A stretch of 64,000 bases of DNA. Source: Candidatus Saccharimonadales bacterium (lineage in GTDB: Bacteria > Patescibacteriota > Saccharimonadia > Saccharimonadales > 2-12-FULL-41-12). A model generated the notes under the pieces. It worked only from the letters and a program-made list of their open reading frames with translations, had not been told where the DNA came from and made no database searches. Both the position numbers and the translations under genes were made by a program. Positions 22,989 to 27,145 of this stretch are shown one piece after another. Location of the stretch: the NCBI GenBank assembly GCA_041906505.1, contig JAYRJB010000008.1, forward strand, positions 8,053-72,052. Direction: 5' to 3'. How positions within the stretch are numbered: position 1 is the first letter of the stretch; every line of letters begins with the position of its first letter.

Positions 22989-23392
22989 CAAAAATTAGCA
23001 AAGGCAGAACGATTGCTTTGGGGGCAGTTATTGCCGCCGGAATTGGCTATGTTACGGGCATTCTAACCGCCCCAAAAAGCGGCAAGGAAACGCGGCAAGA
23101 TATTGCGGGCGGAGTTAGTAGCGCAAGAGCCAAGGCCGACAAGCAGTTAAAAAAACTCCACAGCGACCTCGGGGATCTTATTAAGCAAGGGGACGAAAAA
23201 GTAAAGAACGCAAGATCGAAGGTCAGCAAGGAGTATGCAGAGGCCCTTGAACAAGCAAAAATTGCCCGCGGAAAAGCCAAGCTGCTTCTTAGTGCGATTC
23301 ATCATGGGGACGCTGATGATCCCCATCTTCAAGCTGTCATAGATGAAGTTAAGCTTGCAAAACAAAACCTCGGTCGTTTTATCAAGAAGTAA
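22985..23392 (+). CDS. YtxH-domain protein
   Basis: GAVIAAGIGYVTGILTAPKSGKETRQDI YtxH signature plus a coiled C-terminal region. ATGA overlap with the upstream gene. Confidence 0.7.
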   Translation: MTKISKGRTIALGAVIAAGIGYVTGILTAPKSGKETRQDIAGGVSSARAKADKQLKKLHSDLGDLIKQGDEKVKNARSKVSKEYAEALEQAKIARGKAKLLLSAIHHGDADDPHLQAVIDEVKLAKQNLGRFIKK

Positions 23393-23485
23393 TTCCAAGA
23401 AAAGAGTTTCTTTTACGCGCTATAATAAGACGTGTCTAGAGTAGTGCAGTAGTGTAATAGGCTTTTTGGCAGGGAGAGGTTTGTT

Positions 23486-26400
23486 ATTAATAAAAAAGTA
23501 GACAAGAACAAGGTAGCGACTGTTTCTGAATCGTTTCGTTCGAGCGATTACGTTCACCTACATAACCACACGCAGTACAGTTTACTCGACGGCCTTACAA
23601 AAATACCGGCTCTGGTTGATGAGGTGAAAGCCATGGGCATGGATTCGGTTGCAATGACTGATCATGGCACACTGTCTGGTGCGATAGAGTTTTATAAAAC
23701 ATGCAAAGAAAAAGGTGTGAAACCAATAATTGGTATTGAGGCCTATGTCTCTCCTAGGAAGCACACTGACAAAGATCCAGCGTACGATAAGCAGTACTAT
23801 CACTTGATATTGTTGGCAATGAACAACAAAGGCTATCAAAATCTAATGCGGCTTTCTACGATCGCAAATTTGGATGGCTTTTACTACAAGCCCCGGATAG
23901 ATCACGAGCTACTCAAAAAATATAACGAGGGGATTATCGTGTTGTCGGGCTGCATTAACGGCGAGGTTGGGGATGCTCTGAGGCAAGAACAATACGACAA
24001 CGCCAAAAAGATAGCAACGTGGTATAAAGAGGTTTTTGGTGACCGTTACTATATTGAACTTCAAGATCACGGACACGTTGAGCACACGAGCTCTTGGGAT
24101 GAGCAGATAAAGGTCAATCAACAAGCCGCGAGGCTTTCGGCGGAGCTGGACATTCCTCTCGTTGTAACTGGCGATGCGCATTATTTAAAGCATTCAGATC
24201 AAGAGGCGCACGAAATATTGCTCTGTGTTCAAACGGGTTCATTTTTATCCGACGAAAAGCGAATGAGTTTAAAGGATTTTGAGCTTCATGTTGCTGATCC
24301 AAAAGAAGTTATAAGTCGTTGGGGCAGTGAGTATCCGCAGGCGATACGAAACACGCGCAAAATCGCAGATCGTTGCAATGTCGATATTGAACTCGGGAAA
24401 ATACTCATTCCCAAATTTCCGGTTCCGAAAAACCAGACCGAGAAATCACTACTAGAAACACTCGTCTATCAAGGCTTGGCATGGCGCTATGGAAGTACAA
24501 AAAAAGACGCTGCCAAAAAAATGACCATTGACCAAGCCAAAAACACCCTTAGCAAAAATATTCTCGAACGGGCTAAGTATGAGCTCTCGGTCATCAACGA
24601 TATGGGATTTAATGGATATTTTTTGATTATTGCTGACTTTGTTAATTGGGGAAAACTGCAAGGTATTGTTTTCGGTCCAGGGCGAGGAAGTGCTGCTGGT
24701 TCGATTATTTCCTATGCGCTTAATATTACTGAGCTTGACCCCTTGGAATATGATCTGCTCTTTGAGCGGTTTCTGAACCCAGATCGAATCAGTATGCCTG
24801 ATATCGATATTGATATTCAAGACACTCGACGCGACGAGGTTATTCAGTATTGCATCGATAAATACGGCGATGACCGTGTGGCCAATATTGTCACATTTGG
24901 CCGTATGGCTGCTAGGAATGCCGTCCGCGACGTAGCACGTGTTTTGCAAGTTCCTTATTCTGAATCTGATCGAATCGCCAAGATGATTCCACCGCCGATT
25001 CAAGGTCGGCATATTCCTCTTGAAGCGTCGCTCCGAGAGAATAATGAACTGAGAAATGAGTATAAAACAAATGAGCAGGCTCAAGCGGTTTTTGACTTGG
25101 CGGTAAAATTGGAGGGTACAATTCGTAGTCACGGGGTTCATGCTGCAGGCGTCGTAATTGCACCAGGAGAAATTATTCAATACGTGCCTTTGGAAATGGC
25201 TCAAAAAGGTGTGATTGCAACTCAGTATTCAATGGGACCGATAGAAGAACTAGGTCTGCTTAAAATAGATTTTTTGGGCTTGTCAAACCTCACAATAATA
25301 AAAAACGCGATGCGCATTATTCGGAAAGTCTACGGTGTAACGATTAATATAAGTGACATTCCTCTTGACGACAAAAAGACATTTGAGTTGTTTCAAGGGG
25401 GCGACACTACCGGCGTATTTCAGTTTGAGTCGGCGGGAATGAAGCGTTATCTTAAGCAATTAAAACCTACGGTTTTTGATGACCTAATCGCAATGAACGC
25501 ACTGTATAGGCCCGGACCGATGCAATGGATAGGTGACTTCATTGATCGCAAGCATGGCAAGACCAAGATTGACTACTTGCACAAGAAAACTGAGGGCGCA
25601 CTAAAAAACACCTATGGCGTATTGGTGTATCAAGAACAGGTCATGCAAATTGCAAAAGATCTCTGTGGATTCACTGGTGGTCAAGCCGATACGTTGCGTA
25701 AAGGAGTTGCCAAAAAAAGACCCGAGGTTCTGGCGGCACTGAAGAAAGACTTTATTGAAGGTGCACTCAAGAACTCTGATATTAGCCGGTCAAAAATTGA
25801 AGAATTTTGGGTTTCACTTGAAGCCTTCGCTGCCTATTGTTTTCCCAAGTCGCACTCGTCTTGCTACGCGACTATCGCATATCAAACCGCGTATCTGAAG
25901 GCGAACTATCCCGCGGCATTTATGGCAGCCCTCATGACCAGTGATTATGACGATATTGATCGACTCGCTATCGAGATCAATGAGTGTAAGCACATGGGAA
26001 TTACGGTGCTTCCACCAGATGTTCAAGAGTCGTTTTTGGAATTTGCGGTCATTAAAGACAAAGAGGGTAACGACCAGATTCGCTTTGGGATGAGAGCCAT
26101 AAAAAATGTTGGTGCCGGCGCGGTTGAGGAAATTCTAAGAGCTCGAGAGATGGATGGGGGGTTTTCTAGCCTCGAAGATTTCCTATCAAAAACGAGCGTT
26201 CGGGTGGTCAATCGAAAAGCGCTTGAAAGCCTTGCGAAGTCCGGAGCACTTGATGGATTTGGTGATCGGAGTACCCTTGTCCACAATATTGATACGCTCA
26301 TTGCCTATGCGAATCGTGTCCAGAAGGACAGTAACACGGGTCAAACTGACTTGTTCGGTGACCTTGAGGACGATACTCATATTGCGCCAAAACTTGCATT

Positions 26401-27145
26401 GAACGAAGTTTCCGACTCGATTGATAATCGGACTCTGCTCTCTTGGGAAAGAGATTTATTGGGACTATATCTAAGTCAGCACCCATTGCAAGAATTTGAA
26501 ACTATTCTAAGTGAACAGTGCATACCGATTGGCGAAATAAAGTCTGATATGGACGGTAAGACGGTTGAGGTGGGTGGTTCTGTAGTAGAAATTAAAGAAA
26601 TTACCACAAAAAATGGCCAAAAAATGGCCTTCGCGACGTTAGCAGACTTATCAAAAGAAATTGAACTTGTGCTTTTCCCAAACGCGTACCAAAAAACTCT
26701 TGGCATGTGGGAGCGGGATGAGGTTGTGCTGGTCAAAGGCAAGATATCATCAACTGACAAAAACGGTAACACGAATGAAGAGGTTAAAATACTGGTTGAT
26801 GATGCACGGACAATAACAGAAGCCCAAGCCAGGGCCTATGAGCCGGTTGGGAAAAAGCCAAAGGCTCCAAAAGTAGCAATAAAAAAGCCAATAGCCCAAG
26901 ACCGCACCAATACTGATGTCGAGAAAAGACTGTACATACGACTTTTAAACACCGACGATCACGAAAAATTGACACAACTTAAGCGGTTAATTGATGCACG
27001 GGTTGGAGGCACTCCGATTGTGCTAGTAGTTGGTGAGGATAGTGACAAAAAAATAATTAAACTTCCAACCGCGGTTGAGCCGAATGAGTCATTTTTTCTG
27101 CAACTATCAGAAATTTTTGGCGAAGCGTCAGTAAAATATCAATAA
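23486..27145 (+). CDS. dnaE: DNA polymerase III alpha subunit (non-canonical start; see findings)
   Basis: PHP domain (HLHNHTQYSLLDG, TDHG), polymerase core (GPGRGSAAGS, PDIDIDI), HhH region, OB fold. The frame is open from 23453. The first canonical start (GTG 23624) lies after the conserved PHP motif. ATT 23486 follows SD AGGGAGAGG by 6 nt. Confidence 0.85.
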   Translation: MNKKVDKNKVATVSESFRSSDYVHLHNHTQYSLLDGLTKIPALVDEVKAMGMDSVAMTDHGTLSGAIEFYKTCKEKGVKPIIGIEAYVSPRKHTDKDPAYDKQYYHLILLAMNNKGYQNLMRLSTIANLDGFYYKPRIDHELLKKYNEGIIVLSGCINGEVGDALRQEQYDNAKKIATWYKEVFGDRYYIELQDHGHVEHTSSWDEQIKVNQQAARLSAELDIPLVVTGDAHYLKHSDQEAHEILLCVQTGSFLSDEKRMSLKDFELHVADPKEVISRWGSEYPQAIRNTRKIADRCNVDIELGKILIPKFPVPKNQTEKSLLETLVYQGLAWRYGSTKKDAAKKMTIDQAKNTLSKNILERAKYELSVINDMGFNGYFLIIADFVNWGKLQGIVFGPGRGSAAGSIISYALNITELDPLEYDLLFERFLNPDRISMPDIDIDIQDTRRDEVIQYCIDKYGDDRVANIVTFGRMAARNAVRDVARVLQVPYSESDRIAKMIPPPIQGRHIPLEASLRENNELRNEYKTNEQAQAVFDLAVKLEGTIRSHGVHAAGVVIAPGEIIQYVPLEMAQKGVIATQYSMGPIEELGLLKIDFLGLSNLTIIKNAMRIIRKVYGVTINISDIPLDDKKTFELFQGGDTTGVFQFESAGMKRYLKQLKPTVFDDLIAMNALYRPGPMQWIGDFIDRKHGKTKIDYLHKKTEGALKNTYGVLVYQEQVMQIAKDLCGFTGGQADTLRKGVAKKRPEVLAALKKDFIEGALKNSDISRSKIEEFWVSLEAFAAYCFPKSHSSCYATIAYQTAYLKANYPAAFMAALMTSDYDDIDRLAIEINECKHMGITVLPPDVQESFLEFAVIKDKEGNDQIRFGMRAIKNVGAGAVEEILRAREMDGGFSSLEDFLSKTSVRVVNRKALESLAKSGALDGFGDRSTLVHNIDTLIAYANRVQKDSNTGQTDLFGDLEDDTHIAPKLALNEVSDSIDNRTLLSWERDLLGLYLSQHPLQEFETILSEQCIPIGEIKSDMDGKTVEVGGSVVEIKEITTKNGQKMAFATLADLSKEIELVLFPNAYQKTLGMWERDEVVLVKGKISSTDKNGNTNEEVKILVDDARTITEAQARAYEPVGKKPKAPKVAIKKPIAQDRTNTDVEKRLYIRLLNTDDHEKLTQLKRLIDARVGGTPIVLVVGEDSDKKIIKLPTAVEPNESFFLQLSEIFGEASVKYQ

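Follow-up and report, generated by a model that had tools for sequence, protein, structure and literature searches.

The E. coli genes infC and pcnB, which encode IF3 and poly(A) polymerase, respectively, start at AUU (10.1101/063800, PMC2830850), and the output of near-cognate starts in E. coli reporters amounts to 0.1-3% of that of AUG (10.1101/063800). Deinococcus DnaA starts at ATC, as determined from TMPP-labelled N-terminal peptides, with conservation of this start in three Deinococcus species (Baudet et al. 2010, PMC2830850). The AUU/AUA start of infC is widely conserved, and its IF3-dependent autoregulation has been shown. Initiation at AUU is discriminated against by IF3. Non-standard translation of another kind occurs in dnaX and IS3-family elements, in which a -1 frameshift takes place on A AAA AAG sites that have an SD upstream and a hairpin downstream; the dnaX shift yields a shorter second product. 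In E. coli dnaX, an SD-like element is stimulatory at a distance of 10-14 nt, and by the reasoning developed for this gene, a tRNA-Lys(CUU) makes A AAA AAG a poor slippery site.

Here, we describe a dnaE gene from a member of the Saccharibacteria that probably belongs with the first of these groups. The gene lies in a stretch of 64,000 nucleotides, which is referred to below as the window. Like infC and pcnB, it has an in-frame AUU behind a Shine-Dalgarno (SD) sequence, no canonical alternative and an apparently weak start for a low-copy protein; it differs in the gene concerned, i.e., dnaE, and in the phylum. Unlike the AUU/AUA of infC, the AUU in the window is phylogenetically shallow, being confined to one species pair, and any IF3-dependent regulation by analogy with infC would be conjecture. 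The likeness to Deinococcus DnaA lies in the production of a core replication protein from a non-canonical AUH codon, in a conserved N-terminus that precedes all canonical starts and in public annotations that are wrong; the DnaA start is, however, backed by peptides, whereas that of the window dnaE rests on comparative sequence evidence. With dnaX and the IS3 family, the locus shares an identical, correctly phased heptamer, an AGGGAG-type element upstream and a stop after the shift site, but it lacks a downstream structure, its 0-frame initiation is doubtful, the sister species does not keep the start and stop of its short upstream ORF (uORF), and a shift would have to give the sole product. 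Our literature search found no paper on a dnaE with a non-canonical start codon.

Results

The dnaE frame on the forward strand is bounded upstream by an in-frame TAG at 23450-23452 and then stays open for 57 codons (23453-23623) that include no ATG, GTG or TTG. The first canonical codon in frame is GTG 23624, which is residue 47 when counted from ATT 23486. The original prediction had held that no canonical start precedes this GTG; this was borne out, and all of its coordinates were correct on re-check. Given the codon usage of dnaE, a run of 57 sense codons without a canonical triplet has a chance probability of ~0.046, which alone is mildly improbable. The case for a non-canonical start is thus made by the homology found upstream of the first canonical codon and not by the absence of such triplets in itself. 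Among 121 distinct dnaE 5' regions of Saccharibacteria, that of the window was the sole one without a canonical start.

Homology begins upstream of GTG 23624, in agreement with the original prediction that the upstream codons encode the PHP motif and must be translated. The Pfam PHP match (PF02811; E-value 2.7e-60) spans residues 24-195 from ATT and profile positions 1-164 of 164, and the HxH motif of the domain corresponds to H24 and H26. The codons of this metal-binding motif, HLHNH, occupy 23555-23569 (+ strand) and precede all canonical starts. The motif xVHLHxH[ST] was present in every Saccharibacteria locus examined. The top homologues, which cover 97-100% of the query at 95-66% identity, all possess PF02811, PF07733, PF17657, PF14579 and PF01336, the homologue domain set being PHP, DNA_pol3_alpha, finger, HHH_6 and OB. 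This domain set and the intact HxH identify the window gene as DnaE, i.e., the alpha subunit of DNA polymerase III (Pol III), a PHP-domain C-family polymerase. Five sites differ between the window and its sister species within 23543-23623, and since four of these differences are synonymous (the fifth being Y/F), this segment is under purifying selection as protein. Judged by the profile match and these synonymous differences, the codons upstream of GTG 23624 must be translated. The peptide YVHLHNHTQYSLLDGLTK is an example from the residues that they encode.

The proposed initiation codon is ATT 23486-23488 (+ strand; position -21), to be read as fMet. From TAG 23450 to the HxH motif (YVHLH), it is the only in-frame ATT, ATC, ATA or CTG. 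The SD sequence AGGGAGAGGT lies at 23471-23480 (+ strand), with its GAGGT core 5 nt before ATT; the element as first described, AGGGAGAGG, was located at 23471-23479, and the distance from SD to ATT is 5-6 nt. The SD-led genes of the window have spacers of 4-8 nt, among which the 5-nt GAGGT-ATT spacer of dnaE is typical. At -8.9 kcal/mol, AGGGAGAGGU formed the best predicted duplex in the leader, as computed with a generic 16S 3' tail that may differ from the organism's own. A start at ATT would give a Lys-rich tail of 21 residues ahead of the motif, which matches the tails of relatives in length (12-23 residues) and composition, and an expected N-terminus of MNKKVDK.../NKKVDK.... The re-annotated dnaE accordingly runs from 23486 to 27145 (+ strand) and comprises 1219 codons and a stop.

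At 90% identity, the protein cluster of the window DnaE contained one sister species only, and a metagenome scan yielded no relatives nearer than 75% identity. The sister-species DnaE is 93-95% identical in amino acid sequence to that of the window. Eight sister-species assemblies keep ATT together with the SD and the first 10 codons, and ATT is carried by only two independent lineages; within these 10 codons, the two species differ only by the synonymous changes GTA/GTG and GTA/GTT. The sister SD is GGGGAGAAG, with GGAG 9 nt before ATT. Just upstream of ATT, the two species are separated by T5/T6 and G3/G4 indels (net 2 nt), as expected of a non-coding leader. The sister also has an in-frame GTG (-17) and TTG (-28), which gene callers choose. 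The callers placed two different starts, i.e., TTG(-28) and GTG(-17), on identical sister DNA, indicating that neither codon carries a clear signal. GTG(-17), a possible start in the sister alone, would give the N-terminus MDKNKV. Of the four substitutions around ATT, three are at third codon positions when read in the dnaE frame (TTT/TTC and GTT/GTC on the upstream side and GTA/GTG on the downstream side), a bias that hints weakly that translation could begin upstream of ATT, although it would arise by chance with P ~0.11.

The dnaE loci of other Saccharibacteria provided a broader comparison. The 120 other loci share with the window the neighbours NTP_transferase, an 86-aa ORF, YtxH and dnaE, with CAP and SpoU encoded on the other strand, as well as a tail rich in Lys and Thr that spans 12-23 residues ahead of xVHLH and, in the leadered subset, a GAGGT SD. 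In all 66 of the other Saccharibacteria genome loci, the motif was preceded by a canonical start, at 8-34 codons by the best candidate. Amongst the 120 other distinct 5' regions, 74 were of the leaderless type (73 with ATG) and 27 of the SD type (19 with GTG or TTG), whereas ATT alone was found only in the window. Most Saccharibacteria dnaE genes are thus leaderless with ATG, and weak starts are the rule among the leadered ones. The same GAGAGGT/GAGGT motif precedes the GTG or TTG start in four loci of close relatives (L101, L002, L017 and L038), at the distance that separates the SD from ATT in the window. The stretch from SD to start reads GAGAGGTtgtttcGTG in L101, GAGGTaaaaGTG in L002 and AGGAGAGGTgtcgaaTTG in L017, compared with GAGAGGTttgttATT in the window, and GTG CCG AAA AAA G of L002 stands opposite ATT AAT AAA AAA G of the window. 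In this alignment, the GTG of L101 and that of L002 are the positional homologues of ATT 23486.

The original prediction had named ATT 23486 behind a strong SD as one of two routes to DnaE. This route gained support from the status of ATT as sole near-cognate codon, from the usual SD spacing, from the conservation of both elements in the sister species and from the occurrence of GTG or TTG at the ATT position in leadered relatives. We consider that dnaE most likely starts by SD-directed initiation at AUU 23486, with a probability of about two-thirds. This would most likely be a rare but already known kind of start, rather than a frameshift.

A -10-like box, TATAAT, at 23421-23426 (+ strand) is the likely dnaE promoter. 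Its position was correctly predicted, it is kept in all eight sister-species assemblies, and transcription from it would start at ~23432-23434, leaving a leader of ~52 nt before ATT. Scanning of 23250-23700 gave no full sigma-70 promoter or terminator, and a consensus scan gave no -35 element; since the promoter scan was without a match, it is the conserved -10 box on which the promoter call draws. Within the 64-kb window, -10-only boxes lie 4-11 nt ahead of ~16 of the 54 gene starts. A leaderless start at GTG 23432, which is in the dnaE frame 5 nt past the -10 box, was rejected because TAG 23450 is reached after six codons; the counterpart of this GTG in the sister species runs into the same early stop. 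The leader is also predicted to form a 14-bp hairpin (23454-23487, + strand), in which the SD, along with the A and the first T of ATT, is paired to a U-rich tract (dG -11.2 kcal/mol, z -3.83; none of 200 shuffles was as stable). In the sister-species leader, only a 7-bp core remains (U-run with GGGGAGA) and the fold is not significant (z +0.28). The predicted hairpin may attenuate translation, its function being uncertain given the lack of a significant fold in the sister species. No Rfam family was matched within 23350-23700.

Discussion

An ordinary start could have been obscured by a sequence or consensus error in the metagenome-assembled genome, or by a minority allele. Either the G-run at 23472-23474 is really G4, which would bring TTG 23466 into frame and give MAGERFVINKK... 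(MAGEKFVINKK... in the sister), or the true codon at 23498 is not GTA but GTG, which is what the sister has. The sister does have G4, T6 and GTG at these sites, and both length differences are in homopolymers. With G4 put back, the sequence upstream of ATT still differs from that of the sister by the synonymous TTT/TTC and GTT/GTC and by AGG/AAG (R/K). In addition, the dnaE of one public sister assembly (L167) is frameshifted by A8 in place of A7 in a homopolymer, which shows that such errors do occur in this type of data. Nevertheless, 54 ORFs, including some of 1001-1266 aa, tile the 64-kb window with no split gene, pointing to a low indel rate, and a rare error would a priori have a very small chance of hitting precisely a start codon. 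Moreover, TTG(-28) and GTG(-17) have no SD or -10 box at a working distance, whereas ATT does; the starts of relatives align with ATT and not with either codon; and the disagreement between callers on identical sister DNA again speaks for the lack of a clear signal. Exact-protein look-ups with the products from GTG 23624, ATG 23633 and ATG 23639 and with the public gene call P0124 led to no contig from a second assembly of this species that would confirm G3 at 23472-23474 or GTA at 23498-23500. Overall, we regard an error or minority allele as unlikely. A start at GTA 23498 itself, the homologue of the sister GTG, was dropped, as GTA is not known to serve as an initiator codon. The public call for the window's own sequence, P0124, begins at ATG 23633 and predicts a protein of 1170 aa, 49 residues short, which would favour a real start there or at GTG 23624, and a DnaE whose PHP domain lacks its initial portion. 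As the PHP match begins at residue 24, however, a start at GTG 23624 would lose the HxH metal site: roughly the first 23 PHP profile positions would be deleted, including the HxH that is invariant across the examined Saccharibacteria loci. The predominance of synonymous differences in 23543-23623 also argues against such a start, and neither codon is preceded by an SD, just by coding sequence. We find this extremely improbable; the public dnaE call is truncated and lacks the PHP metal site.

The other route originally proposed was a dnaX-style -1 frameshift, in which translation would start at TTG 23481 and slip on A AAA AAG (23492-23498, + strand) before TAG 23499. We also considered TTG 23466 as its start and the upstream SD-like AGGGAGAGG as slip stimulator, as in dnaX and IS3-family elements. 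The geometry stood up to analysis: the phase of the heptamer with respect to both TTG codons, the adjoining stop and the landing in the dnaE frame at GTA 23498 are exact. A gap of 12-15 nt separates the end of the SD-like element from the heptamer, which is near the dnaX range, and TTG 23466 is homologous to the in-frame TTG(-28) of the sister, a single G putting it out of frame in the window. The mechanism itself gained no support. The 6-codon ORF TTG TTA TTA ATA AAA AAG TAG (23481-23501, + strand), whose frame also opens at TTG 23466, has TCG for its start and TGG for its stop in the sister species, where dnaE is in frame with canonical codons, so that the predicted combination of heptamer and TAG is not a conserved device. 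The 72 nt 3' of the heptamer showed no stimulatory structure (MFE -10.4 versus a shuffle mean of -11.4 kcal/mol, z +0.37), with 125 of 200 shuffles folding at least as well. Runs of at least six A occur in the tail of 23/120 relatives, with AAAAAAG in six and in the same phase in four (L001, L002, L012 and L102), all with in-frame canonical starts, and none of the ~120 other loci needs a shift. As regards initiation of the uORF, TTG 23481 abuts GAGGT (0-nt spacer) and lies 4 nt after GGAG, while TTG 23466 has no SD or nearby -10 box. Two inefficient steps would be needed to make an essential enzyme. We therefore judge the frameshift to be very unlikely, the heptamer to arise incidentally from AAA AAA GTA, which encodes Lys-Lys-Val, and the 6-codon ORF to be probably non-functional. 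The N-terminus of a frameshift product would be MLLIKKVDK... or MAGRGLLLIKKVDK.... Transcriptional slippage on A6 or T5 was rejected as improbable, these runs being too short; efficient transcriptional slippage requires runs of about 9 or more.

Under SD-directed initiation at AUU 23486, dnaE would be transcribed from the TATAAT box, the 30S subunit would pair with AGGGAGAGGT, and the initiator tRNA would read the near-cognate AUU as fMet, giving a full-length Pol III alpha of 1219 residues with an intact PHP domain. The weak start probably keeps DnaE synthesis low, with coupling to IF3 activity as a possibility. Tight dosage control of DnaE, as originally suggested, is plausible, and may be considered alongside the weak GTG or TTG dnaE starts in 19 of the 27 SD-led relatives. 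A regulatory AUU like that of infC, which would make synthesis of the replicative polymerase dependent on IF3 and perhaps on opening of the hairpin at 23454-23487, seems rather unlikely; were this the case, the overlapping TTG uORF and A AAA AAG might serve as a second, frameshift-dependent route.

The public dnaE model should be extended to ATT 23486. Should initiation at AUU be correct, the replicative polymerase would join the few essential genes that use AUU or AUC as their start (infC, pcnB and Deinococcus dnaA), with the understanding of translation mechanisms unchanged by this case. The more general result is the comparative start pattern across Saccharibacteria, which points to selection for low DnaE output. 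If the AUU were regulatory, replication capacity would be tied to translational status in an ultra-small episymbiont.

Results

Within the window, a clean, densely coding stretch (~46% G+C) of a Saccharibacteria (TM7, Saccharimonadales) genome, the dnaE ORF lies on the plus strand at 23624-27145; the domain set of its homologues includes PHP, DNA_pol3_alpha, finger, HHH_6 and OB. Upstream of GTG 23624, the dnaE frame remains open for 57 codons without ATG, GTG or TTG, back to the stop codon TAG at 23450-52. Re-reading of the sequence confirmed this arrangement, together with an in-frame ATT at 23486, a Shine-Dalgarno (SD) sequence, AGGGAGAGG, at 23471-79, an out-of-frame ORF (TTG TTA TTA ATA AAA AAG TAG) starting at 23481, a slippery heptamer, A AAA AAG, at 23492-98 and a -10-like TATAAT box at 23421-26. 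From these elements, the original prediction had proposed that dnaE is translated either from ATT 23486 or through a dnaX-style -1 frameshift at the heptamer, and that the 57 upstream codons must in any case be translated.

The latter claim was borne out by two types of evidence. In a profile search, the Pfam PHP match spanned residues 24-195 counted from ATT, i.e., the whole profile (1-164), with GTG 23624 corresponding to residue 47. Furthermore, the window and its closest relative (hereafter, the sister species) differ at five sites within 23543-23623, of which four are synonymous and one is a Y/F replacement. Initiation at GTG 23624 would cut off the HLHNH metal-binding motif, which was found in all Saccharibacteria loci examined. 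Given that the PHP profile needs the upstream codons, the public gene call P0124 (1170 aa), which has the exact window sequence and begins at ATG 23633, is truncated.

To place the locus among its relatives, dnaE 5' regions were gathered from Saccharibacteria genomes (66) and metagenome contigs (61), giving 121 distinct sequences including the window. Homology extended 5' of GTG 23624, and every other region had a canonical in-frame start upstream of the xVHLH motif (best candidate, 8-34 codons upstream), leaving the window as the sole exception. The probability of 57 sense codons lacking ATG, GTG and TTG is ~0.05, so that the gap by itself is unremarkable; the weight of the case is the homology 5' of the first canonical codon.

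Two architectures were apparent in the 120 other loci. A -10-like box (TATAAT, TATACT or TAGAAT) was present 4-11 nt before the dnaE start in 74 of these, a leaderless-type arrangement, with ATG as the start in 73 of the 74. An SD preceded the start in 27 loci, 19 of which used GTG or TTG; the nearest relatives of the window outside the sister species belong to this SD-led group. Within the window, ~16 of 54 genes likewise had a -10-like hexamer (TATAAT, TATACT, TAGAAT or TACAAT) 4-11 nt before a start that was mostly ATG (e.g., plus strand 11180, 32101, 45777, 47022, 53729 and 55022; minus strand 6393 and 35602), which suggests that leaderless mRNAs are widespread in this genome.

The window leader (TATAAT...GAGAGGTttgttATT AAT AAA AAA G) aligned with those of three other Saccharibacteria, L101 (TATAAT...GAGAGGTtgtttcGTG), L002 (TATAAT...GAGGTaaaaGTG CCG AAA AAA G) and L017 (AGGAGAGGTgtcgaaTTG), thereby placing ATT exactly at the weak canonical start of these relatives, behind the same SD. 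This SD was the strongest anti-SD pairing site of the leader (-8.9 kcal/mol), and its 5-nt spacer to ATT is typical of SD-led window genes (4-8 nt). The N-terminal tail read from ATT, MNKKVDKNKV..., is Lys-rich and 21 residues long, comparable to the Lys/Thr-rich tails of relatives (12-23 residues).

Eight public assemblies (L001, L161-L167) cover the sister species (amino-acid identity, 93-95%). SD, ATT and tail were identical in all eight, the sole difference in the compared region being one intergenic base in L163. ATT is thus retained in this species, as is a G-rich SD, GGGGAGAAG, whose GGAG lies 9 nt 5' of ATT. Over the ten codons that follow ATT, both species encode the same protein, with only synonymous differences (GTA/GTG and GTA/GTT). 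A net 2-nt indel (T5/T6, G3/G4) just 5' of ATT fits a leader that is not translated. In-frame TTG and GTG codons are also present in the sister species, 28 and 17 codons before the xVHLH motif (-28 and -17), and identical 5' DNA (L001, L161-L166) has been annotated from TTG -28 (1225 aa: P0001, P0123, P0126) or from GTG -17 (1214 aa: P0122, P0125, P0127). Neither codon had an SD or -10 box at a working distance. As the window counterpart of the former, TTG 23466, is out of frame, and that of the latter is mutated to GTA 23498, ATT is the only start candidate common to both species; lying between these codons, it may be the real dnaE start in the sister species too.

Discussion

Based on SD strength and spacing, the start position of relatives and conservation in the sister species, we consider that dnaE translation probably begins at ATT 23486 behind its SD (probability approximately 0.66), a case of the known class of non-canonical AUU initiation.

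A programmed -1 frameshift on A AAA AAG has exactly the geometry originally described, and TTG 23466 would lengthen its 0-frame ORF to 11 codons. The sister species, however, conserves ATT and SD but not the heptamer-plus-TAG arrangement: it has TCG for TTG 23481 and TGG for TAG 23499, and needs no shift. Moreover, TTG 23481 adjoins the GAGGT core, TTG 23466 lacks an SD, and the 72 nt 3' of the heptamer folded no better than shuffles (z +0.37). AAAAAAG is also the DNA form of Lys-Lys-Val coding; A-runs of at least six occurred in the tails of 23 of 120 relatives, with AAAAAAG in six and in the same phase in four, all with ordinary in-frame starts. The frameshift branch is thus unsupported and very improbable. 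The predicted mRNA 5' end (UGUCUA, 23433-23438) can pair with UAGACA at 23499-23504, just 3' of the heptamer, a helix kept in the sister species despite GTA to GTG (U-A to U-G); this is probably chance, the overall folds being no more stable than those of shuffled sequence (z -0.49 and +1.28).

The absence of a canonical start might instead reflect a sequence error, in which the G-run at 23472-74 is really G4, as in the sister species, or GTA 23498 is a miscalled GTG. With G4, TTG 23466 comes into frame to give MAGERFVINKK (sister species, MAGEKFVINKK), and the three leftover substitutions are two synonymous changes and one K/R, a suggestive but statistically weak pattern (P about 0.1-0.25). 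That homopolymer errors do arise in public sequences of this clade is shown by L167. Against this, there are no split genes in the 64-kb window, and TTG 23466 and GTA/GTG 23498 neither have a ribosome-binding signal nor align with the starts of relatives. An independent public assembly of the window's own species was sought and not found, and for this reason we retain sequence error as an unlikely explanation, though not a negligible one. In L167 itself (2864-2881; JGI contig Ga0490023_003187), dnaE was called as two genes, of 192 aa and 1047 aa, owing to an A8 run, probably a homopolymer error, where four other sister assemblies have A7 (AATGCTAAAAAAATAGC; homologous run at L161/L162 2002-2018).

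Under initiation at ATT, transcription would proceed from the conserved -10 box (start inferred), the 30S subunit would bind AGGGAGAGGT, and initiator tRNA would pair with AUU 23486, yielding full-length DnaE at a low rate. The output of AUU in E. coli reporters is ~0.1-3% of that of AUG, and infC and pcnB are the only confirmed AUU genes in that organism (10.1101/063800). An AUH start in a replication gene has a precedent in Deinococcus DnaA, which starts at ATC as determined by N-terminal proteomics (PMC2830850).

The leader may contribute further. A predicted 14-bp hairpin at 23454-87, rich in G-U pairs (dG -11.2 kcal/mol; z -3.83; stability matched by none of 200 shuffles), pairs a U-tract with the SD and with the AT of ATT. 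It may sequester the SD and so attenuate translation, or be due to chance; as the sister species keeps no more than a 7-bp core, we regard it as a lead and not a finding. The leader matched no family in an Rfam search. GTG 23432, situated 5 nt after the -10 box at approximately the expected transcription start, opens a six-codon mini-ORF in the dnaE frame ending at TAG 23450 (23432-23452), with a five-codon equivalent in the sister species (L001 2945-2962; GTG TCT AAA GTA GCG TAG). This could be a leaderless uORF before dnaE, or a coincidence.

The ATT case is of modest interest, being chiefly an annotation correction. Because SD-led relatives already favour GTG or TTG, ATT would represent one more step toward low DnaE output, and looks like the continuation of that trend, with dnaE as a further case of an essential replication gene whose start codon is poor.
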